From: Anthoceros angustus | Taxonomy: Eukaryota; Plantae; Anthocerotophyta | DNA: 64,000 nucleotides | NCBI GenBank assembly: GCA_010909165.1 | Contig: MU008160.1 | Span: 1,426,001-1,490,000 of the forward strand | Direction: 5' to 3' | Shown: positions 31,731 to 61,308 of the stretch, piece by piece | How the letters are laid out: each line of letters begins with the position of its first letter | Position numbering within the stretch: position 1 is the first letter of the stretch | The notes under the pieces: generated by a model | Told to the model about the DNA's origin: nothing | The model's input: only the letters and a program-made list of their open reading frames with translations | Databases searched by the model: none | Program-made: the position numbers and the translations under genes

Positions 31731-32136
31731 ATAGTCTTAACCTTCATGGTCTTTCTTGTTGAGACTTAGGTATCAATCCCATATGTGGATCTATGGATAC
31801 TATGATCATGCGGTGATCATAAATAAAAGCCGTATCATAAGCGGTCAATTAGCGTAAATTATAATGACATCTAACATGATCGAGTTACCATGAAACTCTC
31901 ACTAATGGTTTGAACATGCAAGAATATACCTTGCCAAACATTAAAATATTCTTTATGCGGTCATGTTTGTGGCATGTATCGGTCATGGAGGTCACCATTA
32001 TCGTCTGGCGTGTCTGGGACAAGCGAGCCCGTGCGGCACCGAGTCTGTGCGTCTTGCTTACACAGGCTCGGGCCACCTGCGATATTCGATGTCTTGTATG
32101 GAAAAGCAGCGTCGTAATGCCCGGTGGCTCGGGGTG

Positions 32137-33050: not shown

Positions 33051-35278
33051 GAGTGTCCCTGCGCCCACCACGTTGAGCAGAAGAGGTTGGCTCGTGGATT
33101 CGTGACGACTCTCCGCCTCTCATGTTCCTTGGCATTAAGATGGAATTTCTCGAATTTTGCCATCATCTCCTCCATCTTGTTCCCTGTTGTTCTACTTTCT
33201 TGGCTACCTCGGCCTCCCTCCTCGCTTTGTTCCGCGTCCTTTTTGCGTACATCGCCTCTGTTTTGCCCTTGCCAGCTCCTTGTTGTCCGTGCGACCCTTC
33301 ATTTCTTTTTCCATTTGGCGCTCCTCATCGATGGCGCTTCCTCCGACATCACTCGTTTCCTCCTCAGGAACTTTACGTGGAATCTTACGTGGAGCTCTCT
33401 TCACGATGAACTTTCTTAGGAGGATGAGGATCCTTCTTTTTTCCGATCTGGGCTTCTTCTTCTCCTTCTTAGCCTTCCTCCTCCCTTGCGGGTTGGATTC
33501 CTCATAGTTTAGCGCGCCTTGATAGCCTTGCCCAAATTCTTCTCCGCTTGTAACCTTACGTGTCTCCCCATCTTAGAACCCGGGCCTTTAGCGAACCACC
33601 GTGTACTGCAACTCGAGTGAGGGCCACTTGATCGCGTGGTGTGAAACCTCTCCACATCGCTGCAAGGTTTCCTTCTTTCCTCTCGCTTTTCAAGCTTGGA
33701 CAACACGTATCCCTCCACGTCAAGCCCCAGACCTCTCACAGGCGGTTTTAATTCTTCATAGGTTCTTGGAGGTGTGGGCGACTTGAGGTATTCGCCTATA
33801 CCACTTCTGGACCCCGAAGAACTCCATAGAACAATGAATCTGTGCATCTCCGCTTCTGGTTTGCAAATGTCAGCTCAAAGCGCTCAACAAATTCATCGGT
33901 CTTCATACCCTTCCCTCTCCATACGGTAAGGCTTGGTGGTGACCACCACCGGCGTGGTGGTCATGACTATCGTTCGGTATTGTGGTTGGTCAACAACGGT
34001 TCCTGCGAGTCGATTGATCTCCAGCGATGCACACTTTTGGAAGAGAGGTCGGTGGATGGAATTGGTCCGAGGTTCCTTGGCGGTGGTACCTCGTCCAAGT
34101 CCGAGGTTGGGGATCTTGCTCCAACAAGATCGGACCCCGTCCACAGTTGCTTCCTTACTTCCCTTCTCCTTCCAGCGGGTGTCTTGGACCCTCCTCAACT
34201 CGCGGTTTGCAACCCTTTTAACCTTTCCGGTGCTTGGCGTTGTCGCTTCTCGTGTGGCCTTCCGTCCCGACTTGACTCGAACCCTCGACTCAACCGTGGC
34301 ATCCATCTACCTAACTAGATACACTCCAAAACTAGACACCTAAGCTATGGTTAGTCCCCTATAACCTTGTGTTTCATTCCCGACAGCGGCCAAAATGTGG
34401 AATGGGTTTTGCATCGAAGGCAAAGAGGCCACATTTACCCTCTATGTCGTTATAGTCCTAGGATTCGATCCCAAGGGAATGGTGTTGTGTCAAGGTGTGC
34501 TAAATCTATGGATTCTAGACCTACCCGTCGCTCACTACCCCACCTTCTCCTACCTTCCAAACCCACCAGTGGTAGACTCGGCCACCGTGGCGGTTCGCAA
34601 CGTGGCGGGTCCCACCTGCGCCGCCTTCGCGAGTCTATTAAATCACCGGCTTCTCTAACACGGACCTAGGGGCTATGGGACACCATACGCCTCCTCACCT
34701 TACGGAATTTGCGATTCCACCACACGCTTCCACTCCCCCTACGCGTTTCCGATTTTCCCTCACACGCTCTCACAATCCCTCGGTAGCGCACACAACTACC
34801 CCTCAGGAACCTTTCCCTTCCCAATGAACTCTCCCTCGTCTCACGGGCCACAGACCCTCCTTGGGCCACAGACCCCTCTCTCATGGAATGAACACACAGT
34901 GGCGGCGGTTGGAAGAGGTCGATGGATGGAATTGGTCCGAGGTTCCTTGGCGGTGGTACCTCGTCCAAGTCCGAGGTTGGGGATCTTGCTCCAACAAGAT
35001 CGGACCCCCGTCCCCTGGTTGCTTCCTTACTTCCCTTCTCCTCCCAACGGGTGCGTCTTCCGGCTGGATCCTCCTCAACTCGCGGTTTGCAACCCTTTTC
35101 AACCTTTCCAGTGCTTGGCGTTGTCGCTTCTCGTGTGGCCTTCCGTCCCGACTTGACTCTGAACCCTCGACTCAACCGTGGCATCCATCTACCTAACTAG
35201 ATACACTCCAAAACTAGACACCTAAGCTATGGTTAGTCCCCTATAACCTTGACGGTTTCATTCCCGACAGCGCCAAAA

Positions 35279-38200
35279 TGTGGAATGGGTTTTGCATCCG
35301 AAGGCGCAAAGAGGCCACATTTACCCTCTATGTCGTTATAGTCCTAGGATTCGATCCCAAGGGAATGGTGTTGTGTCAAGGTGTGCTAAATCTATGGATT
35401 CTAGACCTACCCGTCGCTCACTACCCCACCTTCTCCGGCTACCACCAAACCCACCATGGTAGACTCGGCCACCGCGTGGCGGTTACATGGCGGGTCCCAC
35501 CAAGCCCGCCTTTCGAGTCTATCACCGGCTTCTCTAACACGGACCTAGGGGCTATGGGCGGACACCTATATCGCCTCACCTTACGGAATTCTGCGATTCC
35601 ACCACACGCTTCCTCCCCTACGCGTTTCCGATTTTCCCTCACGCTCTCACAATCCCTCCCAGTAGCACACAACTACCCCTCAGGAACCTTTCCCTTCCCA
35701 ATGAACTCTCCCTCGTCTCACGGGCCCCCTTGGGCCACACAGACCCTCCTTGGGCCACACACCCCTCTCATGGAATGAACACAGTGGCGGCGGTTGGAAA
35801 GAGGATCGGGAAAACCCGGTCGGTGCTTGGGCGATTCGCCTTCCGGATTCCGCCTCGGCCGTCGGCAATCCTACCTCTTTTCCGTGGCGCGCCTTCCGTT
35901 ACCCAGGCGTGGAGCTTGGCCACTCCGCTCTCGACCATCCGAGATCTTCCGGCCTTCTTGTGACGAAGGCGGTGCGAACCCGTTTGATCTTGACGGACGT
36001 CTCCAATCAACCCCACTCGGCGGTTCGATACGGAAGTTCACACAATCGTCGCCTTGAGAGACACCCAAAGGGTCTCTTATACATCTGGTGTGGTCCAACA
36101 CGACTCACTTCTCTTTAGTGTCTAAAATTGTAGCTCCTACCACGGCGCCTTACCAATCTAAGCAACATGACTCTGGTGATGGAACTCCCTATCCTCGCTT
36201 TGAAAAACCCGGTCCTAGGCTATCGCGACTCCCTAAAATCAGCTGCCGCCTCGCGATTCTTGCCTCGCCCCTCGGCCCATGGGGACCCCTCTCGCTCTTG
36301 ACCTCGCCTGATCCGCGATTTTCCCCACAACCTCCACCTCGCTCTCACTCCTGAATTTCCCTCGCGCCTTCCGCGGACGTTGCCTTTGTACCTCTATGTC
36401 CATTGTCCGCTCCTCCTCATTTGGACAACCATACTGTGCTCCTCCCTCCATGCTCGCTGCGCCTCGCTCATCTCTTCCGGCACCACTTGCGGAGGATAGG
36501 CGCCCGCTCCTACTCGAAGGAACCAGTAGCGCTGTGGCGGTCAAGATGTCTGACCGGTGGTTTACGCCCCTCTGTCCCAACAACCACATACACGTTTAGA
36601 GTGAGCACCGCTCACCATGCGGCGGGGACATGAGCATCCTCATCCGGACGCCGTAGCTGTCGCCCTTGATACGGTCCTTACCCTCTCCTCCGTGGACAAT
36701 CCACAGGCGGCTGTTGATTCTCCGGGATCATCCCTCCATCTGCGACACTCCGTCGGTGACTTCCCCACCTCGGTTCCCGTTCCACGGTGGCTGGTTTAGC
36801 CACCGTGGTGGTTCTTGACTCTGCGGTGGTTGTTGCTCGGCCTTTCTTGGTTTGGCCACCTCTCTCTTGACTCGGCCCTAACCCGTCTCTTTCCGCTTGT
36901 ACCTCTCCGACTTCTTGAATTTCTCCAAGGCGCCATCGCTTCCACACTCTGGACTCGCGAGACCTCATCACAGCTCTTCAATTGTAGCATCGCCCCTTGA
37001 CTGATTTACTAAAGCTTCTGAGTGGACATGTCCCTCGCTCCTGTGCCTTGCATAAGGCCGCCGCACTCCGTCTGCGCTCCTCGGCCTTGCTCTCGCCTTC
37101 GGGCTCTCCAACTTCTCCTTGAGCAACTTCTCCTGTTGGCCTTGCACACTCGGCCAAGTGAGAGCCATGGGCTTGATCGAGGAGATCCTGCGTCGTGCCA
37201 TGGCGAAGTCAAACCACCGCAAATCCCCAAATTGGGCTGTCCCTTGCCCATCCGCCTCCACAACAATTCTCGTGTCGGTGTCTCCTATCCCCACCTCGGT
37301 AGGACGGTTCGGTGAAATGTCGCCAAAAATGTCCGGAGCTCGTTGCGGTCTCGGCGAAGTTAACCCCTCCTCTCCTAGGGGTTGGTGCCTTGCCTCTTCC
37401 CCGCATTCTCCCCTAGCGGCGTTCATCCCTGCACACAGGAGGGAGCAACTTGCCATTTCCCCTTTACTTTCTCCTCCTTTACCCGCGTTCCTGCTGCCGT
37501 CTTCGACCTGGTGACCCTGGGTGTGGCTGTGGGTTCCTCCTCTGCTGGTGCCTCCCTTCTTCGCCGATCCCCGTTCGACCGTTGCCGCCCTTCGCTTCTT
37601 ACCCTTGGAAACTTCCCCACCCTCTTCCGAACCTTCCAGGGAAGCGCACTCCCAACTGCTGGAATCCTTGCCCGAATCCTCCTTCAATTCCTCCTCTTCT
37701 ACCTTGAGTTCCGGCCGGCTTCCAACCATGCAGGCGGACGACTTCAACTCGTTAAACACCGGAATGCAAATACATGAATCGAGAAAAGGCGAAATCAAGG
37801 AGGGCCGAGGGAAGAAAGTAAATTCGCCTTCTCCTCACAGGCTCTTTCGAAAATCATCCTCCCCAATCAATTTGTGTACCCTTGACCACCTCGTGAAGAA
37901 AAACCAAGAAGTGATCCGCCATATGATCCGGCTTAGGTTACAGGAAACACAAAATCCATTTGGCCAATCCCACCAGTGCAGACACGAGTTGGCGAGTCAC
38001 CCGACCATTGTTCACTCTCACTTCCCAGGCTTCATGGCGCGGCCTGCTTTCAAGGTCTTCTTTCAGGGTCAATCACCAAGCTCCCATCCTCGATGCTTCT
38101 CGCCCATACCTTTGCTCGAAGAGGCCAAATCCAGTTCTGCGGCCTTTTCCTCGCGTCACCCTCTTGCGACTTGGTCCTTAATTGCGGGCGCACTCTTGCA

Positions 38201-40043
38201 CCAATGCGGTACGTAGCACCATTTCTTCTCCATGAACTTGACCCGGCTCACGCACGGTGCCGGCTCTCACTTTCCGATGGTCCATGTTGGGCCGCTGCGT
38301 CTGCCATGGCGAAGTCAAACCAAATCCCCAAATTGGGCTGTCCCTTGCCCATCCGCCTCCACAACAATTCTCGTGTCGGCGGTGTCTCCTATCCCCACCT
38401 CGGTAGGACGGTTCGGTGAAATGTCGCCAAAAATGTGTCCGGAGCTCGTTGCGGTCTCGGAAGTTAACCCCTCCTCTCCTAGGGGTTGATGCCTTGCCTC
38501 TTCCCGCTTCATTCTCCCCTAGCGGCGTTCATCCCTGCACAGGAGGGAGCAACTTGCCATTTCCCTTTATTTTCTCCTCCTTTACCGCGTTCTGCTGCGT
38601 CTTGACTGGTGACCACAGGTGTGGCTGTGGGTTCCTCCTCTCCTAGGGGTTGGTGCCTCCCCTTTTCGCCGATCCCCGTTCGTTGCCGCCCTTCGCTTCT
38701 TACCCTTGGAAACTTCCCCACCCTCTTAGAACCTTCGAGCGCACTCCCAAGCTGGAATCCTTGCGAATCCTCCTTCAATTCCTCCTCTTCTACCTTGAGT
38801 TCCGCCGGCTTCCAACCATGCAGGCGGACCGACTTCAACTCAGTTAAACACGGAATGCGCAAATACATGAATCGAAAAGCGAAATCAAGGAGGGCCGAGG
38901 GAAGAGAGAGTAAATTCGCCTTCTCCTCAGGCTCTTTGAAAATCATCCTCCCCAATCAATTTGTGTACCCTTGACCACCTCGTGAAGAAAAACCAAGAAG
39001 TGATCCGCCATATGATCCGACTTAGGTTACGTAGGAAACACAAAATCCATTTGGCCAATCCATTTGACACGAGTTGGCGAGTCACCCATTGTTCACTCTC
39101 ACTTCCCGAGGCTTCATGGCGCGGCCTGCGGCTTTCAAGGTCTTCTTTGGGGTCAATCACCAAGCTCCCATCCTCGATGCTTCGCCCGCTCGAAGAGGCC
39201 AAATCCAGTTCTGCGGCCTTTTCCTCGCGTCACCCTCTTGCGACTTGGTCCTTAATTGCGGGCGCACTCTTGCACCAATGCATCGTAGCACCATTTCTTC
39301 TCCATGAACTTGACCAGCTCCTGCACGGTGCCGGCTCTCACTTTCCGATGGTCCATGTTGGGCCCTGCGTGAGTGAGATTTCGGCCGCTCGGGCGCCATC
39401 TCCTTCTCTCGTTGTTTCCCAAAACAAAACCTCGACTACCTGCGGATCAGTCGGAAGAGAAAAAAAAAATCGAGCCGCCCTCGCGCTCCTTCCACGCCTC
39501 CTCGCGAACTTGCGCCGCGATTCTCTCCTCCGCCGCCGCCGCTCACGATCGTCGCGCGCCTTCCTCCTGCAGTGAGGCGGTGATTTGGCTGGCGTGGTAT
39601 GCCGCGCCCCTCTTCTGCGCTCCGCTCATTGCCCCTCACGGAAAGTCGCGACCTCAGTCTTGGGTGTGCCCTTCTCCCGATTGCGCTCCGTGGTAGTCCC
39701 GCTCCGCCACTAGGGTTGTAAATTCCCACAGTGCATGCGTCCGTTTCGGCCACCGTGGTGGAACTAGCCACCACCCTTGACTACACTGGCGGCATATTGT
39801 GAGCATCCCTAGCATATATAGACACCTTTTATTCTAAAATTCCCAATACCCAAGGACTCTATTTCTACCCCACCTCGGGGTCAAACCTAAGGGTCGAAAA
39901 ATTATTATTATCTCCAAGGGCCAAGGACCATTCCGTATAAAAGACGACTCGACGATTCTCAAAGCACTGCTATTCTAACATCAAAACAAAAAAATCGTTC
40001 ATCGACACTTGAGGCGGGGTTAGTGCACATGTGGTCTTCCACA
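35279..40043 (-). repeat. Element A 3' LTR (~3.7 kb without the internal duplication), containing a long ORF
   Basis: Starts TGTGGAA two nt after the PPT and ends TTCCACA before TTTTGGCGC (7-bp terminal inverted repeat). TATA GTATAAGAG at 36074-36082. ORF starts ATGGCGCCC at 39399. Confidence 0.8.
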
Positions 40044-40077
40044 TACTCCCTTCTCATTTGTTGGCGTCCTCGCCAAC

Positions 40078-43000
40078 TTATTGGTAATATTTCTTGACCC
40101 GCCAACCGTTGGCGTTGGCAGTGGTGCACTCTTGAGTTGAATTGATCCGTTGTCGAAAACTTAAAACTACGAAGGGCCCCATCCATCGAGATGTAATTTA
40201 CGGAAAATGCATGTATCGGTTATCATATAGTAAAGCGGATCCCGGGAACAACGTATTCTTGGCTTCAATCTCTTGTCGTGCCACTCCTTCCTCCTTCTTT
40301 GGACATCCCGCATAACTTGGAGGCTTGTTCTCTGTCCTCCGTGTGTCGTCTGAAACCCACCAACCTTTCCAAGACTTTCCTCCACGGCATTCGACTTGGT
40401 TCCTGTATTCTCGGGGTGGGAACTTGAATTCTATTGGCATATGACGAATGCCGTAAGTAAGATAATACGGGTTTCTTTGCGTTGTCACTTTTCCATGATC
40501 CAGTGCACAGTCTTGAATGCGATTTCATATCGATCCCGCATAGGCGGTGAGTTTGGTTAGGATCTTGCACAACAAGCCATTTGCCTTTCCGTGATTGGCT
40601 TTTGGGTTATAAGGCGTGGACTTCACTGGCGGCGTTGAAGTGGTTGGTCATGTTGGAGATTACACGATTGAAATGTGTTCCTCTGTCCGGCTCCGGTAGC
40701 GCCATATCGGTGATGATTTGCTCGAGCAGAATCGCGGCGTGCGCGAATCTACCGGCACATGCTTCTACCATCCGTCTGCATGGCCACGGGATGTATTGGT
40801 TTTGGCGAGCCTTGGTTTTGTGGATAGGACCGACAAAATCGATTCCCCATTTCTCGAATGGTGCGGTGCAAGTATGGGGACAAGGGGCCATTGGGTTGTT
40901 CTTTGTTGGCTTGCCGACCCTTTGGCAAGCGTCACGGCTTCACGAACTCCTTGGCATCCTTGTACATTGTAGGCCACCAATAGCCGACCTCAAAATTTTC
41001 CGCATGTGACATGCGGCATAATGACCTCCGCCTCTTCTTCGTGTAAAGAGCTCGGGACTCGCTCACACCTTGATGCGTACCCATAACCGCTCCCCGTCCG
41101 GATGACTCGGTATAAATTCATATTGTGCCGTGTAGAATGGTGGAGTAGTGGAATGACGCTTTGAATCATGTCTTGGAAAATGTGGAGGAATTTGGCTGTG
41201 CCAAGATAATCGTATATCTCACGATATGTTGGTCTTAAGCCACCCTCCCTTCTCAATCGATCTTGGCTCCCTCCTTCCGGAGGCTTCACTCGTTGGTTTG
41301 CAACTCCTATGACAGTGTCTCATCGGGAAAGTCGTCTTCTGGTCCTTTCCACCTTCCTGTTTTCAATCGAGATATGAAGTCGGCATTGATATGCTTCCTA
41401 CCTCTCTCGTTTCCTTTGTGAAGGTAAACTCACAGCGGCAAGATCCGGTATCGTCCGAAAGGTCGAGTTTATTCACAAGGTGTTTCAAGGCAAAGTGGTC
41501 AACATGGAACACAAATTCATACGAGAGGAGGTAGTGTCGAATTTCGACCGAGTAAACCATTCCCGATTGCTTGGCGCTCCGTGGTGGTATACTTTCGCTC
41601 GCGTCCGTTAGTTGTCTCGGCATAGTAGATCGGAAAATCCTTCTTCTTCTCATCCGGCTAAGGGTACCCAATTGCAAATCTTTGAAACATCAGCAGCGTG
41701 GAACTTCTTACTCGATCCGGTCCTTTAGCGTGGGGCTGTCGATGTAATGCGTAAGTCACGAAATGCTTCCTCCGTTCGTCCACTCCACTCCGATCCTTCC
41801 TTAACAAGCTCGTTAGTGGGGCGGCCGCTTGGCGAAATTTGGAGCAAGCGTCTATAATATCCGATTCCCGGAACCCGGAGTTCCTTTAGCGTTATTGGTG
41901 CTCTAAGGGTGGCGATGACCTTTACCTTGTCCGGATCTACTTCTATACCTCGGCTTGAAAATTCGATGCAGAATTCCTCGACATGCAGTAGCACTTTTAC
42001 GGATGCGGCATAATTGCGTGGCTCGGCTCCGAACGGTGCGGCGGATGGTCCCAGACCCGAATCACAGTCGTCGGAAAACTTCCATAAAGTCGCGGAGGAA
42101 GTCCTTGAAAATTTTGACGATGGCTCGCATGAAGGACCCAGTGCTCCGTCAACCCCGTGCGCTGCGCTTGTAAGCATATGTCCCCAGTCGGTTGTAAAAG
42201 CGGTGAGGCCAATCGCTCTCCCTAAGGTGCGGTGATTATACCCAGTACCGTCTAGGAATGAATCGCCATTACACTGCGACGGATCCGAGGATATTATCGA
42301 TGAAGGGTAGCGGAAAGTGATCCTTCTTGGTGACCTTATTCAACCTTCTCCGATCCGACAAACTCGGATTTTGCACAGGCGCCTCTTAGTACTACCACTA
42401 TTGGAGCCACCCATTCGGTATTGACTATAGGATAGATCACGTCGCCTTGAGGTACATCTCCAAGCGATCCTTTACCTTGAGGAGTACTTGGATTTAACTT
42501 GTCTTGTGGAATCCTTGGGATTGCTCACGGTTCCGAGTCAATCCTATGCTCGCCCATTCTTTGGGGATCCCTTCATGTCTGTCCTCGGCGAAAACATCGA
42601 TGAATTACGCAGCGGTTGCTTCATTCCTTCCTCCAACGCCGCATCCATTGTTACGGAGAATTTGAGCACCTTCCGGAAGAACCTCAACGTCCTTGACTTC
42701 ATCGGCTGTACCACTCGCGCTCTCGGTGCGGTGCTAACCCCGAATCCTTCTTACGGCTCCCGGTTCCTCTTCTCTCATGCCCCATTCCCTAAACAAATCC
42801 TCCGGCGTGAGCTGCGTGGCGCCTCCTCCGCTTTCTCCACTGCTTTTAGAATCCGCGGACCCCTTCCGGAGCATTCGGCGGTTACCCGTAACGACCCTCG
42901 GGTTAATTGTATATGGGATATCTCTGCGGTAGTCCGCTCCTCATCGACCATGAGATGTGCGAGCAGGAACCTATCTTCCTCTTGCATCTCCCGGACGTGT

Positions 43001-44470
43001 CCTCTGCCGAGTGTACCCTTACATTTGATTGGAGTTTCACCGCATACATGTCCTTACTCCACGATAGGCACATCCTTCCCTCCTTGGTCTTGGGATCCCA
43101 TTCCAGCGGTTTAAAACCGACTTCCTTCCGCCCACTTGGCGTGCATTGCGATCGTACATCCATGTTCGGCCAATTAGGACGTCGTGCCACAGCGATTTTC
43201 TTTGGATGACTACATAATCCATCAAGTAGGGATGGTTCCAATGGTCGTTAGCACCCTGTCGGTTCCCCACGGCACCATTACGGACATGTCGGCTAGCCTC
43301 AAAACCTTGGTAGTATGTTCAATATCCAAGCCCAATTTCCTAGCCGTGTCTTACGTCATAATATTTACACCGTGTCGAGAGGCACTCCTTTGATGACACA
43401 TCCGAAATTTCCACAGGTTGGTGGGCCTTGATCCACCATGGATACCAAGTTCACATGGCGGCGAAATTTGGTATAGGAACATTGCGCCTCTTTTGGGTTG
43501 CGCCTCTTTTAACGCCCTCGATCATTGCCTATACTGGATTGTCTCGGAGGAGTTGTCGAATGTGATCATGAAATGTTGGTCCATGATGGCCTCGGCGAGA
43601 TTGAAAGAAGCGGTGGCCGCGACCTTGCCATCCGAGTTTGGTTGGTTGTGGGTTCCGGTTCGTCATGACTTGGGATGCGGTGGCCCTTCCGGTGGGGTGG
43701 TGGACTCCCACAGGGTGGTGGAAATCGACACCCCCCCTTTTCCCCGTAGCCTCCTTGCCAATTCTTCTTGTATCATATCCATGACTTCGCCCGTCGTCCG
43801 GTGGAAACCCTAACTCGGTTCGGTAACTTTCTCGAAATCGGTAGGGTTCCACCCCTTCTCGTGACCCTTCATTCACCTTTCCGCCCATTGGAACACTCAA
43901 TGTCTCATGCATCACTCTTTTGCACATATGGTCCATCCAGCCAAGTCACTGCGGGACTTGTTTTTTAAATCTTTGGCGTTCCGGTGTTGGTATTTCCCCA
44001 TGGTGGCGACACTCTCTCCCTCATCGATCCGTGGTCGTATCCGCCTCCTTTCTTCTTTTCCCCATCGCCTCTCTTTTGCTTTTGTGCTCCTTGTTCTATG
44101 ACCATGGCGGAGGCTTCCCCATAATAATCGCTTCTCTCTAATCCTCAAGCTCCTCGGGGTTCCAATCTCGGCATCCTCCCATACCGCCATAAGTCGTCCT
44201 CAACATGCATGGCGGACCGGACTTGGGTTTGGTCGGTGAACTCACGGGTGGGCTGCGCGATCCTCACCGTCTTTACGGGGCTTTGGCGAGCACACTTCCG
44301 CCAAATGCCCTGCTTGCTACAATCTTGACATAGTTTATCAAAATCTCCATTGCCTTGTGAGTTGGATAAGGCAATGTCGCATAGTGTCAAGGTTGCATTG
44401 TAGCACAACCGGTGCCCATTGGATTGTTACCACTTGGTGATTCTGACGCCTACCCAAGTGGAGTTCGTAG
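40078..44470 (-). pseudogene. Element A gag C-terminus and pol (CCHC, protease, RT, RNase H, integrase), heavily frameshifted
   Basis: CQDCSKQGHLAEVC; GVNIMT.DTARKLGL; RH FHVDHFALKHLVNK; INT WPTMYKDAKEFVK..PFEKWGIDFVGP; terminal SRWMGPFVV..NGWRVKKYYQ-stop. Confidence 0.85.
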
Positions 44471-47400
44471 TGTGGGTGATTTCTAAACCAAGTGGTCACA
44501 AGAGGCCACATTTACCCTCTTTATCGTTGTAGACTTGAGATTCGTACCCAAGGGAGTGATTTCGTGTCAAGACAACCAAAACATAGCCAATCCAACCAAA
44601 ACACGGACATACAAAACATCTAGCGACTCTGAGACCAAGCTACTATCCTAACAACACTCGGACACATGGCTATCTTAGCCACGCGACCTGTTGCTACCTT
44701 AGCAGCAGACGCCAGTTGCTATCTTAGCAACCACCCTCTATTTTAGTAGGCGGGGCCCATCTCGGGTTCGGGCACAGCTATTAATAGAAGGTGGGGGCCC
44801 ACTTGGGGTCCAAGTGGGTAAGATTGGACACCCTCTCTCTTATCCTTCCACAAAGTCGAGATCCACCAATCGAGTTACCGATCACACACCTCCTGCAGTA
44901 GCGCTTCCCGGATCTCTCTTTCTTCCCTCAACCTTTCAGCTTTCCTCCCAAGCTTCATACAGTCCTCCCAGGCTCTCACGGCTCACAGGTACCTCTTGCC
45001 TCTCTCTCCATACTCCCCAAGTTTCTCTGCAACCCCTTCCGCTCCTTGTTCTCACACCTCACGGCCTCATTCAATCTCCACTTTCTCGGCCAAACATCAC
45101 TTACAGTCTTCTCCAATCCCTCTTACTTCTCTCACAGCCAATCAACTCTCCATGTCCGGCATTTCCACTCCTCTCACAGTTCACTTTTGCTCACATTTTC
45201 CAAGCATACAAACCCAGTTCCGTCTCACTTGACCTTCTCTTCCACCCACACGGGCTCCCGCCTTGTCTCCTTTTCCCACATGACCTCCGACACCACAGAA
45301 AAACTCAAACACAAGGTGAGTACTAGACAAGTGAAGGGAATGAGTAAGGAATGGGCCTCCCGGCTTCACAACCCCTTCCTCTTATCCTTGGGAACTCCCC
45401 AAGGAGACCACAGTTCCCTCCTTGCTTTCCACCACTCTTGCGGATCTGGTCACACGGATCTGGGCAACAGTAGTCTTCTCGGCTCCTCACAGCGCGGAGA
45501 AGCAGTGCCTAGACTCAGCTTGGGGTCAGTACCCCAAACCCCGTGCTCAAACACCGAGACTTTAGGCCAACATTGCTTGCATTTCATCAAGAGGCTGCCT
45601 CTTATACCCAAGATCGCCCACAAAAGTAGCTTGGCTACTTGCCAAAATACCAATCGGTCTTAGCCTACCAATCCTAGAGGCCTATCTCTTAATTCTATCC
45701 ACTATGAGGAAGATCAGTCTATAACACATGGGCCTTCATCTATTTGAGGCCACCCTATTATCCCTCACAGGCCTCCTAGGCCGCCTAGCCCATGTTCTCC
45801 TCTTGCTCTTCGCCCTCTTGGCTGGTTGGGCAATCTCTCCCACAAAATCTCCACTTCCTCAGCTGGACTCTTCCCTCTCTTGTGCTCGCCGCATGGTACT
45901 CCTCCTCGGTGAGCTCTTGAATCCTGGATGGGTCGGTGAAAGTCTCCTCCGTGAGTCCAACCCATAGGTAGGATCCGGTGCCGTCAAGGCATGGATCAAG
46001 TACCTCCATGTCCCTCCGCTCCCCGGCTTTTGTCCTCCTCACGATCTTGATTGCCTTTCTTCCATTTAGTGGCTTTGGTCTTGGAGCTTACAGTTGTTGC
46101 TTCCCTTAGCAGTGCAGGCTTGCTTCCCTAGCAACGGCTTCGGTTGCTTGCATTTCATCAAGAGGCTGCCTCTTATACCCAAGATCGACCCACAAAAGTA
46201 GCTGCTTGCCAAAATACCAATCGGTCCTAGCCTACCCGTCCTAGAGGCCTATCTCTTAATTCTATCCACTATGAGGAAGATCGATCTATAACACATGGGC
46301 CTTCATCTATTTGAGCCACTTACCCTATTATCCCTCCACAGGCCTCCTAGGCCGCCTAGGCCATGTTCTCCTCTTGCTCTTCGCCCTCTTGGCTGGTTGG
46401 GCAATCTCTCCCACAAAATCTCCACTTCCTCGAGCTGGACTCTTCCCTCTCTTGTGCTCGCCGCATAGCCTAGTACTCCTCCTCGGTGAGCTCTTGAATC
46501 CTGGATGGGTCGGTGAAAGTCTCCTCCGTAGAGTCCAACCCATAGGTAGGATCCGGTGCCGTCAAGGCATGGATCAAGTACCTCCATGTCCCTCCGCTCC
46601 CCGCTTTGTTTGTCCTCCCCCTCCAGTCTTACTGCCCTTTCTTCCTTCTGGCTTTGGTCTTGGAGCTTATTCTGATTGTTGCTTCCCTAGCAGTGCAGGC
46701 TGTTGCTTCCCTAACAGCGGCTTGATTGCTTAGCAACCTCCTCCATTGCTTCGACCTTGATTCTTCCATAGAGCCTCTGCCTCTTCCACGGTGGCCCTCC
46801 TTGCAATCCACAGCCCTCTTGGCCTCCTTCCACCTTTCCTAGCCTCGTCCCTCTCCTTCTGGCGCTCGGCGAGGCATCCGAGGTTTCGGCTGCACTTGTG
46901 CATCGAAATAACATTACGCAGCTCTCCTATGGTGCTCGTGTGTCGGAGGCGAGCCATGAGGCTTCTGGTCCTTAGACTTGCAACTCCTCTCGGACCTTCC
47001 CTATTTCCACTTCCAAGGCTTGGCGTCCCTCCAAAACCTCCTTCTCCTTCTTCATCTTGGAGCTCCTCCATTTGCTCCTGTTGCTTCCTTCTGCTGTAAA
47101 CCTAACAAGGAGAGGACGAGCTATCGATCTTCCATCTAGCCACAGTGCGTGCCATGAAACCAACTCACGAGGGTGATGTTAGGTCCCGGACCTTCTTGGG
47201 AATGGGCTCCCTCCTTCCTGTCATGGTGGCCGCCCCTGTCACAACTTCCGGGTATACTTGAAAGCCACCCGTTGAGCAGTGTACTTTCTCGGATCACTCG
47301 GCATGCCCAAGGGTTGGTGATTCCTCTGTTGACTGTGGTTTCCCACAGGCTCTGGGATATTGGTCTTTGCCAGCCTTGCCCTTGTCTTGCTTCATCGGGT

Positions 47401-49358
47401 AGCTCCCGTCGCGCTCTTGTGGCTCTAGGTGTTGTTGGAGTCCCCGTTGCTCCCCGGCTCCTCTTGGTACTGTTGGGGCCTTAGCAAGCTGATTGCCTTG
47501 TTAACAAGTGCTACCTTAGCCAGTCACATTCCTTTTCATGGACACTTGGACTTCTCACCTTCACTCCCGGTGCCACGGAGATGGCCTCTTCCTCAGACTC
47601 CTCTTTGGGCTTCCTTCTTTCAAACACGGCCTCCAGAAATGAAAGGTGAGACCATCTCCATTCCCTCCGGCAACTTTGGCATGGTCAAAACGTGGATTAA
47701 GAAGGAGATAGAGGTGAGGGGCTAGGTGATGGTAGGGTCAAGTGGTCCCTCTCACACTGTTGTGTCATAGAACATCTGGCCCAATCTATCTTGGACCCTC
47801 TCACCACCTCATAGAAAGACAAGGAAATGGTCGCAATGTGCTCCGCTTCTTAGTGAGGTGAGAGCAGGATCACTGGCTAATCCGGCCATTTCGAGGTCTA
47901 GCTTGTTGGTGACCCAGCCATTCTCCACTCTAGACAATGTAATGTGAGCTTGTGCCTCCTGCGGACTTTTGAGGAGATGGTTTCTGAAAGGGTCAATGAT
48001 TATCCGCCACATTCCTCTTGGTCTCTCATAACGGCCGGAGCAATTTGAATATTCCAGTGCGGGGTTGGTCCTCACGTTGCCTTCCCCAATGGCCTTCTCC
48101 CTCATCGCTCTGCACTCCAAAACCAACGTGGGGCTATTGTAGCACCACTTTTTGTCCATGAAGGACGGTGATGCTTAGCCACTAAAGACCGCCTTCACTC
48201 TCCGATTGCCCCATATTGGGCCATTGGGCGGTAATAGCCTCAATGGCGAGGAGGTTCTTCTTAGGTGCCATGCTCACTGTCCTATGACACAAGCTTAGAG
48301 CTTCACGAGCAAAGGTGTCCGGCTACCGTCTATGCTTCCGGCCGTTTTACGTGTTGAGCTTGACACCCGGCTCCTCTGCGGAATTGGGCCCGATACACCT
48401 CGCCTCGGCTCGGGCGATCGGCTGTCCGGCCTACCTCGGTTGTATGAGGCTTGGAGGTGTATCCTGCAACCACGGTTGAGCGGCGACCCTAGTGCGCTTT
48501 GTCTTGCCCCGCGACCTCCAGTGCGTGCCTCGATTCTGGCTGCCCGTTGCACACTTCTCTTTTCTGCGGGACGGTTCCCGGCCCCCTTCACAGCCTATCA
48601 GGCTTGCCCCACTCTTGTTAGCTTCTGCGGCACGGTCGCCACACGCCGCCCGCCTAGCCTTCTCCGGAGTTGCACGCCCGATTACTCCCCACTCGCGGTG
48701 GGCGATTTCTGGCGCCCGGCTGCCTCCCATTGCCCAGCCGCACAGGCGTTCTCCACCAGACCTTCATTCGCCGCCTCAGCCTGGGGTCTTGCCTCCGGTT
48801 TGCGCTCCGCTTCCTCCGGCCCCTCTCAATCCTGCCAAACCGGTTTGGTCTCTGCTGGCGCTCGTTCTGTTGGACTTCACGATCATTGCGACACCTCGCC
48901 TTGCATCCGTCCGGCGTTCGCTCCGGCCTCCACCCGTCGCGCTCGAATTCCGGTAGCGCGGCGCCGTCTTCGATCACTTTTGGATTCGATGCAAATACTC
49001 TTCCACGGACTTAATTGCCAATAGGACCCCGTTACTTCCGTTTGGGTATTCCTTGTGATTCCATCGATTGGATTTTCGAAGTCATCGAAAGAAACTCCAA
49101 CTTGGTTGCTACCATAGCAGGCTCCGTCGGTTGTGGTCATAGCGACACAACGGCCCTAACAGCCGCGTTAGCAACGGTCGAGACCAACCCTCAGGGTTAC
49201 ATCCGGGATCGGGACTAGACTCTCTTCCTCCTACTAGGCTCTAGTAGACTTTTCTTTATTTCCTAACCTACTTCATTCCAACTCCACACGATTCTCATAA
49301 CTTAAACACAAAACAAAAAACACTCCTTTCAAGTCTAGTCTTGATGTGGTCACCACCA
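44471..49358 (-). mobile_element. Solo LTR B (related subfamily) inserted in gag of element A, containing the LTR ORF
   Basis: TG...CA ends, flanks CGTAG/CGTGG (4/5 TSD), start homologous to the LTR-A start, conserved 3' motif at 44500-44571 and TATA at 45599-45607. ORF runs from 48271 (MAPKKNLL) to ~46730. No PBS, gag or pol inside. Confidence 0.75.
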
Positions 49359-50752
49359 CGTGGTTGGTCGGGTACATGGTTTTGGGTACACTTGGGTTGG
49401 TGAACCTCTGGATCTGTATGTATCTTCCACCGGACCCTCTTCCTCCTCTTCCTCATATCCCGGGTGTACCCTTGTCGTCGGACAATTAGCTTTGGAGTGT
49501 CCCTGCCCACACGTTGAAGAGGTTGGCTCGTGGGTTCGTGACTCTCGCCTCTCATGTTCCTTGACCGCATTAAGATGGAATTTCTCGAATTTTGCCATCA
49601 TCTCCTCCATCTTGTTCCCTGTTGTTCTACTTTCTTGCTACCTCGGCCTCCCTCCTCCTTTGTTCGCGTCCTTTTTGCGTACATCGCCTCTGTTTTGCCC
49701 TTGACTCCTTGTTGTCCGTGCGACCCTTCATTTCTTTTTCCATTTGGCGCTCCTCATCGATGGCGCTTCCTCCAGGCATCACTCGTTTCCTCCTCAGGAA
49801 CTTTACATGGAATCTTACATGGAGCTCTCTTCACTGATGAACTTTCTTAGGAGGATGAGGATCCTTCTTTTTTCGATCCACAGGCTTCTTCTTCTCCTTC
49901 TTAGCCTTCCTCCTCCCTTGGGTTGGATTCCTCATAGTTTAGCGCCGCCTTGATAGCCTTGCCCAAATTCTTCTCCGCTTGTAACCTTCGTGTCTCCCCA
50001 TCTTAGAACCCAGGGCCTTTAGCGAACCACCGTGTGCACCGCAACTCAGTGAGGCCACTTGATCGCGTGGTGAACCTCTCCACATCGCAAGGTTTCCTTC
50101 TTTCCTCTCTGCGGTTTTCAAGCTTGGACAACACGTATCCCTCCACGTCAAGCCCACAGACCTCTCACAGGCGGTTTTAACTCTTCATAGGTTCTTTGGA
50201 GGTGTGGTGACTTGAGGTATTCGCCTATACCACTTATTGGACCCCGAAGAACTCCATAGAACAATGAATCTGTTGTGCATCTCCGCTTCTGGTTTGCAAA
50301 TGTCGGTGCTCAAAACGCTCAACAAATTCATCGGTCTTCATACCCCTTCCCTCTCCATACTGAGGTAAGGTTGCTTGGTGGTGACCACCACCGGCGTGGT
50401 GGTCATGACTATCGTTCTTGATTCGGTGGTTGGTCCAACAACGGTTCTGCGGAGTCGATTGATCTCAGCAGTGCACACTTTTGGAAGAGAGGTCGGTGGA
50501 TGGAATTGGTCCGAGGTTCCTTGGCGGTGGTACCTCGTCCAAGTCCGAGGTTGGGGATCTTGCTCCAACAAGATCGGACCCCGTCCACAGTTGCTTCCTT
50601 ACCCTTCTCCTTCCAGCGTGTGTCTTGGTGGATCCTCCTCAACTCGCGGTTTGCAACCCTTTTCAACCTTTCCGATTGCTTGGCGTTGTCGCTTCTCGTG
50701 TGGCCTTCCGTCCGACTTGACTCTGAACCCTCGACTCAACCGTGGCATCCAT
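49359..50752 (-). pseudogene. Element A gag (5' part), frameshifted; second truncated copy at 33051-34306
   Basis: MDATVESRV... to MEEMMAKFEKFHLN..CSTCGQGHSKANCP zinc knuckle, directly downstream of the PBS. Confidence 0.7.
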
Positions 50753-50840
50753 CTACCTAACTAGATACACTCCAAAACTAGACACCTAAGCTATGGTTAG
50801 TCCCCTATAACCTTGAGTTTCATTCCCGACAGCGCCAAAA

Positions 50841-53800
50841 TGTGGAATGGGTTTTGCATCCGAAGGCGCAAAGAGGCCACATTTACCCTCTATGTCGTTA
50901 TAGTCCTAGGATTCGATCCCAAGGGAATGGTGTTGTGTCAAGGTGTGCTAAATCTATGGATTCTAGACCTACCCGTCGCTCACTACCCACCTTCTCCGGC
51001 TACTGCCCAAACCCACCAGTGGTAGACTCGGCCACCGCGGTGGCAGTTCGCCTGGCGGGTCCCTCCACCTTGTGAGTCTATTGTCGTCACCGCTTCTCTA
51101 ACACGGACCTAGGGGCTATGGGCATACGGATACCTATATCGCCTCACCTTACGGAATTCTGCGATTCCACACCACTCCCCTCGCGTTTCGATTTTCCCTC
51201 ACACGCTCTCACAATCCCTCCCCGCACAACTACCCCTCGAACCTTTCCCCTTCCCAATGAACTCTCCCTCGTCTCACGGGCCACACGGACCCCTCCCTTG
51301 GGCCACGGACCCCTCCTTGGGCCACAGGACCCCTCTCTCATGGAATGAACACACAGTGGCGGCGGTTGGAAGAGGATCGGAAGAAAACCCCGTGCTTGGG
51401 CGATTCGCCTTCCGGCGGTTCGCCTCGGCCGTCGCGGCAATCCTACCTCTTTTCGTGGCGCGGCACCTTCCGTTACCCAGGCGTGGAGCTTGGCCACTCC
51501 GCTCTCGACCATCCGAGATCTTCCGGCCTTCTTGTGACGAAGGCGGTGCGCGAACCGTTTGATCTTGACGGGCGTCTCCAATCAACCCCACTCGGCGGTT
51601 CGATACGGAAGTTCACACGAAATCGTCCTTTGAGAGACACCCAAAGGGTCTCTTATACATCCGGGTGGTCCAACACTCACTTCTCTTTAGTGTCTAAAAT
51701 TGTAGCTCCTACCACGGCGCCTTACCAATCTAAGCAACACGGCTCTGGTGATGGAACTCCCTATCCTCCTGAAAAAAACCCGGTCCTAGGCTATCGCGAC
51801 TCCCTAAAATCAGCTGCCGCCTCGCGATTCTTTGCCTCGCCCTCGGCCCATGGGGACCCCTCTCGCTCTTGACCTCGCCTCGATCCAGCGATTTTCCCCA
51901 CAACCTCCACCTCACTCTCCTGCTGAGTTTCCCTCGCGCCTTCGCGAGTCTATCGGCTTCTCTAACACGGACCTAGGGGCTATGGGACACCTATATCGCC
52001 TCACCTTACGAATTTGCGATTCCACCACGCTTCCACTCCCCTCGCGTTTCCGATTTTCCCTCACACGCTCTCACAATCCCTCGGCACAACTACCCCTCGA
52101 ACCTTTCCCCTTCCAATGAACTCTCCCTCGTCTCACGGGCCACAGACCCCTTTTCCCCTTGGGCCACACAGACCCCTCCTTGGGCCACAGACCCCTCTCA
52201 TGGAATGAACACACACAGTGGCGGCGGTTGGAAGAGGATCGGGAAAACCCGGTCGGTGCTTGGGCGATTCGCCTTCGGCGGTTCCGCCTCGGTGTCGCGG
52301 CAATCCTACCTCTTTTCGTGGCCGCTACCTTCCGTTACCCGGGCGTGGAGCTTGGCCACTCCGCTCTCGACCATCCGAGATCTTCCGGCCTTCTTGTGAC
52401 GAGGCGGTCGCGAACCGTTTGATCTTGACGGGCGTCTCCAATCAACCCCTCGGATTCGATACGGAAGTTCACACGAAATCGCCTTGAGAGACACCCAAAG
52501 GGTCTCTTATACATCTGGCGTGGTCCAACACGGCTCACTTCTCTTTAGTGTCTAAAATTGTAGCTCCTACCACGGCCTTACCAATCTAAGCAACAGACTC
52601 TATGGAACTCCCTATCCCTCGAAAAACCCGGTCCTAGGCTATCGCGACTCCCTAAAATCAGCTGCCGCCTCCGATTCTTTGCCTCGCCCTCGGCCCATGG
52701 GGACCCCTCTCGCTCTTGACCTCGCCTCGAGCGATTTTCCCCACAACCTCCACCTCACTCTCCTTTGCAATTTCCCTCGCGCCTTCCAGCGGACGTTGCG
52801 CTGTGACCTCTATGTCCATTGTCCGCTCCTCCTCATTTGGACAACCATCGTGCTCCTCCCTCCATGCTCGGCCGCCTCGCTCATCTCTTCCGGCACCACT
52901 TGCGGAGGATAGGCGCCCGCTCCTACTCGAAGGAACCAGTAGCGCTGTGGCGGTCAAGATGTCTGACCGGTGGTTTACGCCCCTCCTGTCCCAACAACCA
53001 CATACACGTTTAGAGTGAGCACCGCTCACCATGCGGCGAAGCGAGGACATGAGCATCCTCATCCGGGCCCCGTAGCACAATACGCCGATCTGAGGTCCTT
53101 ACCCTCTCCTCCGTGGACAATCCTGGGCGTGCCGTTGATTCTCGGGGATCATCCCTCCATCTGCGACACTCCTGGGTGACTTCCCCACCTCGGTTCCCGT
53201 TCCACGGTGGCTGGTTTAGCCACCGTGGTGGTTGCTTGCTCTGCGGTGGGCTGTTGCTCGGCCTTTCTTGGTTTGGCCACCTCTCTCTTGACTCGGCCCT
53301 AGCCCGTCTCTTTCCGCTTGTACCTCTCCATGACTTCTTGAATTTCTCCAAGGCGCCATCGCTTCCACCTGCTCTGGACTCGCGAGACCTCATCTTGAAG
53401 CTCTTCAATTGTAGCATCGCCCCTTGACTGATTTACTAAAGCTTCTGCTGAGTGGACATGTCCCTTAAGCTCCTGTGCCTTGCATAAGGCCGCCGCACTC
53501 CGTCTGCGCTCCTCGGCCGCCTTGCTCTCGCCTTCGGGCTTCCAACTTCTCCTTGAGCAACTTCTCCTGTTGGCCTTGTCGGCCAGTGAGAGCCATGGGC
53601 GCTTGATCGAGGAGATCCGCTGCGTCATGCCATGGCCAAGTCAAACCACCAAATCCCCAAATTGGGCTGTCCCTTGCCCATCCGCCTCCACAACAATTCT
53701 CGTGTCTGCGGCGGTCTCCTATCCCCACCTCGTAGGACGGTTCGGTGAAATGTCGCCAAAAATGTCCGGAGCTCGTTGCGGTCTCGGCTGAAGTTAACCC

Positions 53801-55404
53801 CTCCTCTCCTAGGGGTTGGTGCCGCCTTGCCTCTTCCCGCTTCATTCTCCCCTAGCGGCGATTCATCCCTGCACTGGAGGAGCAACTTGCCATTTCCCTT
53901 TATTTTCTCCTCCTTTACCCACGTTCCTGCTGCCGTCTTGACTGGTGACCACAGGTGTGTGTGGGTTCCTCCTCTGCTGCTGTCCTCCCTTTTCCCATTC
54001 GGCCGTGCCGCCCTTCTTCTTACCCTTGAAACTTCCCCACCCTCTTAGAACCTTCGAGGCGCACTCCCAGCTCTGGAATCCTTGCCCGAATCCTCCTTCA
54101 ATTCCTCCTCTTCTACCTTGGGTTCCCGACCGGCTTCCAACCATGCGGGCGGACCGACTTCAACTCGTTAAACACCGGAATGCAAATACATGAATCGGAA
54201 AAGGCGAAATCAAGGAGGGCCGAGGGAAGGAGAGTAAATTCGCCTTCTCCTCACAGGCTCTTTCGAAAATCATCCTCCCCAATCAATTTGTGTACCCTTG
54301 ACCACCTCGTGAAGAAAAACCAAGAAGTGATCCGCCATATGATCCGACTTAGGTTACAGGAAACACAAAATCCATTTGGCCAATCCCACCGGTGAGACAC
54401 GAGTTGGCGAGTCACCATTGTTCACTCTCACTTCCCGAGGCTTCATGGCCGGCTGCTTTCAAGGTCTTCTTTATTTGGGGTCAATCACCAAGCTCCCATC
54501 CTCGATGCTTCTCGCCCTTCACCTTTGCTCGAAGAGGGCCAAATCCAGATTCTGCGGCCTTTTCCTCGCGTCACCCTCTTGCGACTTGGTCCTTAATTGC
54601 GGGCGCACTCTTGCACCAATGCAGGTATCGTAGCACCATTTCTTCTCCATGAACTTGACCCGGCTCACACGGTGCCGCTCTCACTTTCCATGGTCCATGT
54701 TGGGCCCTGCGTGAGTGAGATTTCGGCGCGGCTCGGGCGCCATCTCCTTCTCGTTGTTTCCCAAAACAAAACCTCGACTACCCTGCAGATTCTGGTCAGA
54801 AGAGAAAAAAAATCAGAGAGCCGCCCTCGCGCGCTCCTTCCACGCCTCCGCGCGAACTTGCCGGCGCCCGATTTCTCTCTTCCGCCGCCGCCGCTCTGTC
54901 CTGATCGTCGCGCGCCCTTCCTCCTGCAGGCGAGGCGGTGATTTGGCTGGCGTCGTGATGCCGCGCCCCTCTTCTGCGGCTCCGCCCCTCACGGAAAGTC
55001 GCGACCTCGCTGATCTTGGGTGTGCCCTTCTCCCGATTCGCTCCGGTGGTAGTCCCGCTCCGCCACTAGGGTTGTAAATTCCCCACAGTGCATGCGTCCG
55101 TTTCTGCCACCGTGGTGGAACTAGCCACCACCCACTTGACTACACAAGCGTGGCATATTGTGAGCATCCCTAGCATATATAGACACCTTTTATTCTAAAA
55201 TTCCCAATACCCAAGGACTCTATTTCTACCCCACCCTCGGGTCAAACCTAAGGGTCGAAAAATTATTATTATCTCCAAGGGCCAAGGACCATTCCGTATA
55301 AAAGACGACTCGACGATTCTCAAAGCACTGCTATTCTAACACATCAAAACAAAAAAATTGTTCACGACACTTGAGGCGGGGTTAGTGCACATGTGGTCTT
55401 CCAC
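50841..55404 (-). repeat. Element A 5' LTR, containing a long ORF
   Basis: Similarity to 35279-40043 stops exactly at TTCCAC (55404), where Z sequence resumes. ORF starts at 54743. An ~850-bp internal duplication lies at ~51100-52760. Confidence 0.8.
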
Positions 55405-61063: not shown

Positions 61064-61308
61064 GATCAGGCACGCATGAGTTGTAACCGATGACGAGGAC
61101 GGGTTAGGATCAGGCACTTAAGAAGGCGCGCATGCCGAAGGATCGAACAAGGTGTGAGTAGGCAGGCATGCTGTAGGGATGTGGGAGAGGTGTAAGTGAA
61201 ACTGTGGTTTAGTTCTAGTTATAGTAGTTACTAAACCTACCAAGTGTTAGGGTATAAAACGATAAGAAATGAAGGGCAAGGGGCCCTCGTGTTTGGGACT
61301 TGCTTGCA
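61045..61308 (+). repeat. Chromovirus 3' LTR (264 bp)
   Basis: Matches the 5' LTR apart from 2 substitutions, a 20-bp and a 1-bp indel, and a different first ~20 nt. Confidence 0.92.

Follow-up and report, generated by a model that had tools for sequence, protein, structure and literature searches.

A probable accessory gene within the U3 region of the long terminal repeats of Athila-like retrotransposons in Anthoceros angustus

We analysed a 64,000-nucleotide stretch of the Anthoceros angustus genome (GenBank assembly GCA_010909165.1, contig MU008160.1, positions 1,426,001 to 1,490,000; hereafter the window, whose own numbering is used throughout) and the long terminal repeat (LTR) retrotransposons that it contains. 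Three related units were recognised: element A, about 16 kb long and on the minus strand (55404-33050), a solo LTR, B, inserted in the gag gene of A (49358-44471), and unit Z, on the plus strand and split by A. In both LTRs of A, in B and in Z, a sense open reading frame (ORF) of about 2.1 kb is found upstream of the main TATA box. An accessory gene thus very probably resides inside the U3 region of these LTRs.

The two LTRs of A align from 40042 and 55404 inward. Upstream of 40043 lie the end of integrase and the polypurine tract (PPT), and upstream of 55404 unrelated coding sequence of Z. The LTR starts after the PPT and TA with TGTGGAA (40043) and ends with TTCCACA followed by the primer-binding site (PBS), which gives the 3′ LTR a 7-bp inverted match, TGTGGAA..TTCCACA; the 5′ copy opens with CGTGGAAG, one letter off TG. 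TTCCACA with the PBS was found at 50841, at 35279, and a third time near 34397. We take the PBS of A at 50820-50837 to be tRNA-Asp-like. A preliminary description of the window had set the limits of this LTR at 40043, at 55404 and at TTCCACA with the PBS, and these hold, as the LTR alignment stops at the PPT-side start and at the Z sequence. Similarity extends beyond 35279: past the 3′ LTR come the PBS and 1.3 kb of gag, which are interrupted at 33050, a junction that may reflect either a tandem element with a deletion, or a mis-join. The break costs Z roughly 40 codons (profile positions 97-134). The start of B resembles that of A, its end is CCCACA, and its flanks, CCACG and CTACG, form a target-site duplication (TSD) with 4 of 5 letters in common. 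Z also ends with CCCACA at its right end, and no PBS was found after it. The start of Z is independently backed by a 950-letter contig of the short-read run X2, which goes from an integrase end through a PPT into sequence with the unique 18-letter run of 32138-32155.

As first described, the sense ORFs of the A LTRs lie upstream of the TATA box, with ATG codons at 39399 and 54743. Homologous ORFs had also been announced in B and Z, and both are present; Z, however, lies on the plus strand, and A splits its ORF into a piece at 32818-33049 and a continuation from 55405. A TATAAGA box downstream of the ORF is common to A, B and Z, and a TATATAT box precedes the ATG by about 430-450 bases in A and Z. 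Inside the 3′ end of the LTR, A, B and Z share a 70-bp motif with 74-86% identity, in contrast to the remainder of R/U5, which has diverged. This motif, possibly a packaging or priming signal, has no match in Rfam, and searches of the sequence found no tRNA or Rfam family. Without tandem duplications the LTRs measure 3704 (A), 4313 (B) and 3842 bases (Z). At about 3.7-4.3 kb, the true LTRs fall short of their first description as giant, which counted in some 1 kb of duplicated sequence.

The four ATG codons (39399, 54743, 48271 and 32818) all read MAP. The shared protein motifs first reported were found again: TW.IGK in A and Z, FM(E/D)..W.Y in A, B and Z, RV.NG in A and B, and DH.L.FL..EVV..IDW in all three, spread across frame breaks. 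EELQDE, stated for A in general, was found in B and in the 5′ copy of A. At the DNA level A, B and Z align in two stretches only, the first 500-600 bases of the ORF (58-66% identity) and the 70-bp LTR-end motif. Mismatches in the ungapped blocks recur with a lag of three (ratio 1.23, versus 1.01+/−0.07 in shuffled sequences; p=0.006 for all pairs together, and below 0.05 in 4 of the 8 pairs taken singly). They fall 55, 29 and 78 times on codon positions 1, 2 and 3, and 12 of the 17 blocks are in the sense direction, a count that is partly circular as frames were chosen by score. As far as sequence comparison goes, this demonstrates codon-level constraint on the N-terminal domain, and the earlier proposal that protein motifs were kept by selection despite DNA divergence is borne out by the periodicity across A, B and Z. 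The alignment of the left part of Z to A or B was not better than shuffles at the DNA level, and the density of stop triplets did not separate the ORF from non-coding DNA in the window. The three window ORFs also end alike, near 52750, 46420 and 57120, in an acidic-hydrophobic word, EVE followed by V/I and V/L; this ending resembles a SUMO-interacting motif.

Copies of A or B differ from each other by 4.0-5.0 insertion/deletion (indel) events per 100 bases, versus 1.2-2.7 substitutions. The indels are mostly of 1-2 bases, and the same pattern is seen in adjacent tandem copies. In the outermost, hence oldest, LTR pair of the locus, 2 substitutions were counted in 233 columns. Over 14.1 kb, contigs from two short-read runs, X1 and X2, carry an indel relative to the window at 336 places (20% share), and at 117 places in 6.3 kb the indel was present in at least half of the contig depth; one X2 contig of 1690 letters covers 1540 window bases. 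The integrase of A has 14 frame breaks in about 1 kb, and pol is broken as often as the U3 ORF. From the indel excess, the short-read disagreements and the broken integrase we infer that the window derives from an unpolished long-read assembly, and most of its frameshifts are likely to be assembly errors. Jump-back tandem duplications were found at 24731-25657, 34037-35804, 37188-39370, 45573-46731, 51092-52786, 55677-55830 and 57227-58976, and each joint carries a short shared word. Each A LTR has its own, different duplication, B and Z have theirs as well, and one X1 contig skips that of the 5′ LTR. These duplications are probably assembly artefacts too, and may mislead other findings on this genome.

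Relatives were reached through the integrase, which matched 59 metagenome loci. A related domain follows pol in 8 of them: it lies in the LTR in four (L006, L010, L011 and L012), between pol and the LTR in three (L001, L004 and L008), and is unassigned in one (L002). The order in L001, L004 and L008 is pol, a purine tract, the ORF, then a GCG.GGACGC-type motif with PPT, TA and TG, so that the ORF is internal; in the four others and in the window, the PPT and TGTGG come directly after pol, and the ORF is downstream. On the strand of the window element the module of motif, PPT, TA and TG occurs a single time, right after pol. In L006 and L011, the LTR end that precedes the PBS is an inverted copy of the start, with 9 out of the first 9 letters matching in one case and 12 out of 14 in the other. 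The four in-LTR relatives come from other hosts, and their frames are intact where complete (605 codons in L010, 629 in L012). In L008 (2663-5098) and L001 (5900-6447), the internal-type ORFs have an extra aromatic-rich C-terminal region without Pfam match.

Of the claim that the gene moved into the LTR, so that every solo LTR spreads a complete copy, the presence of the gene in U3 of A, B and Z stands; the frames are broken as assembled. Enough integrase for a tree was available from 40 of the 59 loci, and the tree used to test the layouts kept 31 rows, L018 being unlabelled as its contig stops just past the LTR start. The in-LTR relatives form a starred clade, and the window, unstarred, stands near liverwort elements on a long branch without firm placement. 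This tree needs two layout changes. A single in-LTR origin is not rejected (approximately unbiased test, p=0.09), and a move in either direction is compatible with the integrase tree. A simple switch to an upstream purine tract is disfavoured by the position of the motif that marks the working PPT: it lies right after pol where the gene is in the LTR, but behind the ORF where the gene is internal, and a rearrangement would fit better.

The accessory family counts 232 database proteins and was not found in viral contigs. A profile built from 111 members was run on both strands of the window in a frameshift-aware scan, with 200 shuffles as controls. The ORF copies gave five of the top six peaks (28.1, 25.5, 24.2, 22.6 and 21.1), with colinear matches; no shuffle out of 200 reached the score of the A 5′ copy, the A 3′ duplicate, Z-left or Z-right. 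Direct searches with the window pieces returned nothing: 0 of 106 candidates by word index, none in a HMMER scan of 1.84 billion proteins, 0.83 as the best Atlas lead, and 0 of 1741 locus ORFs with a window profile; the DNA pattern of the LTR ends was likewise absent from metagenome contigs (0 matches).

Links of this family to known ones are distant. L004 matched PF20167 (Transposase_32) with E 2.5e-4 and 21.4 bits, below the cut-off of 45; it was the only one of 72 family members to match, and no member scored above the curated cut-off. No Pfam match was obtained with the window frames, PF20167 and PF03078 included. The Atlas leads for the L010 domain are the clusters of PF20167 (0.89) and ATHILA PF03078 (0.88), and the domain is probably a remote relative of Transposase_32/ATHILA-ORF1, judging from these matches. 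The N-terminal domain of L010 was modelled with a predicted local distance difference test (pLDDT) score of 93.6. Among 48,161 solved chains, the best match to the model was VANC21 bound to DNA (Z 6.9, root-mean-square deviation (rmsd) 4.2, 193 residues aligned), the only one over Z 5, the next having Z 2.3. A repeat comparison gave Z 7.1; over the two comparisons the rmsd is about 4.1 and 193-194 of 221 residues are aligned, at 11% identity. No match to the family model was found in a viral fold library, and a sequence search of the PDB returned coiled-coil matches only (best E 0.008). The rest of the protein consists of a charged linker, a coiled coil and an acidic tail, and no membrane segment was detected: hydropathy over 19 residues peaked at 0.84-1.30 in the five intact relatives analysed and did not exceed 1.41 in the window frames. 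The modelled fold points to a DNA binder of the VANC/plant-mobile-domain type, rather than to an envelope protein.

Element A has the domain order protease (PR), reverse transcriptase (RT), RNase H (RH), integrase (INT), without chromodomain, and its pol ends a few bases before the PPT. There is no room for an additional RNase H (aRH) between RH and INT, and Pfam found none in pol of six relatives. On these features we class the elements as Athila-like Ty3/gypsy elements, non-chromoviruses of the OTA superclade. Athila elements have a tRNA-Asp PBS in 72% and a 5-bp TSD in 95% of cases (PMC6317226). The PBS is imperfect in the window and more fully Asp-like in relatives; the flanks of B agree at 4 of 5 positions. 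The extra ORF does not lie between pol and the 3′ LTR, as it does in Athila, but past the PPT and the LTR start. Tat lineages with aRH (TatI-III, Ogre, Retand) were ruled out by the lack of this domain, and Phygy/Selgy, short elements with a tRNA-Trp or -Ala PBS, a 4-bp TSD and no extra ORF, by the extra ORF and the length of about 16 kb. Tat elements without aRH occur in liverworts and provide an alternative label to Athila (PMC10508981, PMC13468544).

The number of spaced palindromes was compared with that in shuffled controls for 22 sequence sets, 11 with the ORF and 11 without a detected ORF. A palindrome exceeded every shuffle in 8 of the 11 former sets, versus 3 of the 11 latter. TCCGGA is present in L006, L010, L011 and L012 in 17-57 copies, versus 2-5 expected, and runs through LTR and pol. 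The words of other families are AGCGCT in L001, CAATTG in L004, GGCN4GCC in L008 and CTAN3TAG in B. Two of the sets without ORF, L005 and the left arm of the window, were positive with AT-only words. Enrichment of 7-mers and 9-mers in A, B and Z was at or barely above that of shuffles. A and Z have an observed/expected CpG ratio of 0.90-0.94; it is lower in B (0.65), and in the CACTA transposon (0.65) and chromovirus (0.72) of the same locus. Palindromes and CpG content fit a model of self-recognition without proving it. In pol of L001 (817-3714) the CpG ratio is 0.07, and the CpG-holding AGCGCT is kept elsewhere in L001.

Short reads also gave some indications on copy number and expression. 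X1 gave depth in 29 of the 30 bins, and X2 in 6 of 30 per comparison (6 and 5 contigs). X1 depth, which is not a copy number, was 1258-2446 over the ORF versus 727-1032 over gag and 357-1326 in most pol bins; this roughly twofold depth agrees with the two gene copies per element predicted. Almost all X2 cover falls on the ORF of A (52980-54926), gag, pol and U5 being uncovered, which is a weak hint of a subgenomic transcript. As one X2 contig differs from A at 81 of about 1540 letters, the expressed copy may belong to another subfamily.

We propose the following explanation. The accessory product would be a nuclear, sequence-specific DNA binder of the VANC/plant-mobile-domain fold, dimerised by its coiled coil so that it could read short palindromes in its own element, and would keep the family from silencing. 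The upstream TATATAT box would drive a subgenomic mRNA ending in the R region of the LTR, and binding would either lower methylation or activate the main promoter downstream. As reverse transcription copies U3 to both LTRs, and the formation of a solo LTR keeps one, each insertion leaves a gene copy, which could act in trans. VANC proteins bind short family-specific motifs and demethylate their own transposons (PMC5735166), and a coiled-coil dimer is predicted for them (10.1101/2024.04.02.587720). VANC21 of VANDAL21 (PDB 9lnj/9lnk) is the best structural match of the modelled N-terminal domain; both proteins are transposon-encoded accessory products with a predicted coiled coil, and short family-specific motifs, as in VANDAL21, occur in B and seven relatives. 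VANDAL, however, is a DNA transposon, and the motifs bound by VANC, each of 9 bases, are arrayed in one orientation and outside coding sequence (PMC5735166), whereas the palindromic words described here are spread through coding DNA too. An anti-silencing or self-activating function of the protein has about an even chance of being right, and so has the explanation as a whole, with a U3 gene and a VANC-like product. A wider version is put forward tentatively, its odds being less than even: U3 would be a self-contained anti-silencing cassette with its own promoter, which unlocks all family copies in trans via the palindrome in a clade of non-seed plants, and by extension the Athila "env-like"/ORF1 proteins would be DNA-binding counter-silencers.

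A number of results weigh against this explanation, or against one of its parts. None of the ORF copies in the 64-kb window has an open accessory frame, all being frameshifted as assembled, as the preliminary description had cautioned. No clean TSD was found at the flanks of A or Z. L010 and L012 were placed in the LTR by the same start motif, and their contigs hold no LTR end. In the frameshift-aware scan, 5 of 200 shuffles reached the score of B and 12 of 200 that of the A 3′ copy, an unrelated gag stretch ranked second (25.8), and the reversed profile reached 22.1 at best. Comparison of the window with the family gave at most 5.9 bits with plain HMMER and a probability of 0.4% in profile-profile alignment with hhalign; as neither is significant, the link of the window ORF to the accessory family of the relatives is good, not overwhelming, and we regard homology as quite likely. 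The fold was modelled on the relative L010 and not on a window ORF, Foldseek gave a template modelling (TM) score of 0.48 and E 2.1 against VANC21, a Z of about 7 is in a range common for helical proteins, and a second model, of L004, was too poor for a structure search (pLDDT 52). The VANC domain also resembles MAIL1, a host silencing factor (10.1101/2024.04.02.587720), so that the fold is compatible with an effect in either direction. A, Z and L002 have no palindrome above shuffles (read errors weaken the window counts), four of the eight positive sets form one clade, and L013 has a palindrome without a detected ORF. Finally, that X2 is RNA is a guess only, and its cover is absent over B and Z, as over gag and pol, which is not proof of silence.

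A U3 gene that functions in another job, as a chromatin tether, as an integration or particle cofactor (e.g. guiding insertion into repeats), or as a self-repressor, is rather unlikely. It would account for the lack of palindrome excess in A and Z, for the nest five insertions deep, as repeat targeting would give, and for the fact that MAIN/MAIL1, which share the fold, act in silencing (10.1101/2024.04.02.587720). However, the sole structural match is a DNA-bound anti-silencing factor, the family-specific palindromes of the relatives run through pol and LTR as self-recognition predicts, and the CpG ratio of A and Z, though not that of B, is above that of the CACTA transposon and the chromovirus. 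It is improbable that the ORF is a decaying passenger which entered U3 by rearrangement and is now a pseudogene, its conservation being left from a location between pol and LTR. All window copies are broken, constraint was measured between old subfamilies and not within A, and the divergence of the X2 contig from A also goes in this direction, but pol is equally broken, the excess of indels over substitutions is a pattern of read errors, and L010 and L012 keep intact frames in the LTR. Moreover, as A, B and Z all have the gene in the LTR, their divergence took place in that layout.

It is very improbable that the assembly created the LTR limits, by copying before the 5′ LTR an ORF that in fact lies between pol and the 3′ end of an element with shorter LTRs. 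The many jump-back joins, the unexplained junction at 33050, the lack of TSD in A, and the ordinary layout of L001, L004 and L008, with a purine tract right after pol, would agree with it. Yet the 55404 junction falls exactly at the start defined by the PPT, with no shared sequence for a mis-join, B has both ends and its TSD, the PPT module is single and directly follows pol, and in L006 and L011, contigs built independently from short reads, this layout is likewise flanked by inverted ends. An envelope-like gene, the name given to sense ORFs after pol in Athila (PMC7264820) and a suggestion with which the coiled coil agrees, is hardly credible given the low hydropathy and the absence of a viral fold match.

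The U3 gene with a VANC-like product, which we favour, has partial parallels. With Athila and Tat elements lacking aRH, the present elements share the PR-RT-RH-INT order, an Asp-like, here imperfect, PBS, large LTRs (up to about 5 kb known) and an accessory protein made of a globular domain with coiled coil; their ORF is internal, whereas here it follows the PPT within U3 and is consequently present in each LTR of an element as well as in solo LTRs. Protein genes in U3 are known from retroviruses, where MMTV sag, HIV nef and foamy virus bel/bet overlap this region. There too the coding sequence is doubled into both LTRs, but the proteins are unrelated, and the plant U3 accommodates an entire gene of about 2.1-2.3 kb together with its candidate promoter. 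Tandem LTR retrotransposons that share an internal LTR (PMC11899658) have the LTR-internal-LTR-PBS-gag order seen at 55404-33050, except that the second unit is here truncated within gag and is possibly a mis-join. The extra ORFs so far described in plant elements belong to the internal region, most of them following pol and preceding the 3′ LTR (PMC7264820; PMC6317226; PMC11963269), and those named in OTA elements are Athila ORF-1 PF03078, PF20167, the Ogre plant mobile domain PF10536 and Retand Transposase_28 PF04195 (PMC6317226, PMC7264820, PMC11963269). In the literature searched, of limited coverage and with few subscription papers, we found no U3-encoded gene in plant retrotransposons and no VANC-like Athila ORF; within that coverage, an in-LTR accessory gene and its link to a VANC-like fold would be new.

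LTRs are usually treated as non-coding and solo LTRs as inert, and annotation pipelines seek extra ORFs only internally. A gene in U3 doubles with each insertion and outlasts the recombination by which hosts delete elements. What the accessory ORFs of Athila and Tat do is an open question (PMC7264820); given a VANC-like fold and one predicted target word per family (TCCGGA in L006, L010, L011 and L012, AGCGCT in L001), binding and demethylation become specifically testable, and the two layouts within one clade offer a natural comparison. Coordinates are collected in Table 1.

Table 1. Features of the LTR units and of the enclosing transposons, in window coordinates
Feature	Position	Strand	Remarks
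A 5′ LTR	50841..55404	-	about 3.7 kb without duplication 51092-51943/51956-52786
U3 ORF, A 5′ copy	52639..54743	-	frameshifted; N-domain about 54650-54160, acidic/basic linker, coiled coil near 53600-53300, acidic tail
TATATAT box, candidate ORF promoter	55175..55181	-	also 39814-39820; Z 32363-32369
TATAAGA box, presumed main LTR promoter	52505..52511	-	duplicate at 51657; 3′ LTR 36081
PBS after 5′ LTR	50820..50837	-	Asp-like, imperfect
gag, 5′ part	49359..50740	-	resumes beyond B at about 44470-43600
Solo LTR B in gag of A	44471..49358	-	
U3 ORF of B	46340..48271	-	frameshifted; at most 121 aa without a stop (47812-48174)
pol (protease, RT, RNase H, integrase)	40085..43400	-	colinear tblastn of intact relatives along 43400-40084
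GCGAGGACGC motif, PPT and TA	40044..40073	-	immediately after pol; module precedes LTR start in 7 relatives
A 3′ LTR	35279..40043	-	duplication 37188-38300/38295-39370 within ORF
U3 ORF, A 3′ copy	36220..39399	-	partly duplicated, frameshifted
Second PBS and truncated gag past 3′ LTR	33050..35278	-	with jump-back copy of LTR end; tandem remnant or mis-join
Unit Z, left	32135..33049	+	LTR start, TATATAT box, ORF start 32818
Unit Z, right	55405..59315	+	rest of ORF to about 57230, TATAAGA boxes, conserved end motif
70-base LTR-end motif	50871-50942, 44500-44571, 59220-59285		A, B and Z, respectively
Chromovirus integrase-chromodomain ORF	59690-61063		open frame
CACTA transposon	about 25815-59519		Tnp2 PF02992 match and DUF4218; inserted in chromovirus pol

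The locus is a five-deep nest of repeats. Its outermost unit, a chromovirus with LTRs at 21794-22026 and 61055-61308, encloses all the others; inward follow the CACTA transposon, unit Z (plus strand, spanning 32135-59315 inside CACTA), element A (minus strand) and the solo LTR B in the gag of A. The chromovirus LTRs (234 and 254 bases) are nearly identical, which implies that all inner insertions are young. The closest named integrases are those of the liverworts Marchantia, Riccia and Calypogeia, which by itself suggests a non-seed plant as the probable host.

Elsewhere in the window, diverged arrays of tandem repeats were noted at 940-1446, 3182-3784 and 6301-8473, the repeat unit being about 100, 300 and 340 bases long, and the minus strand of 61759-64000 holds gene-like sequence with a helical-repeat character.

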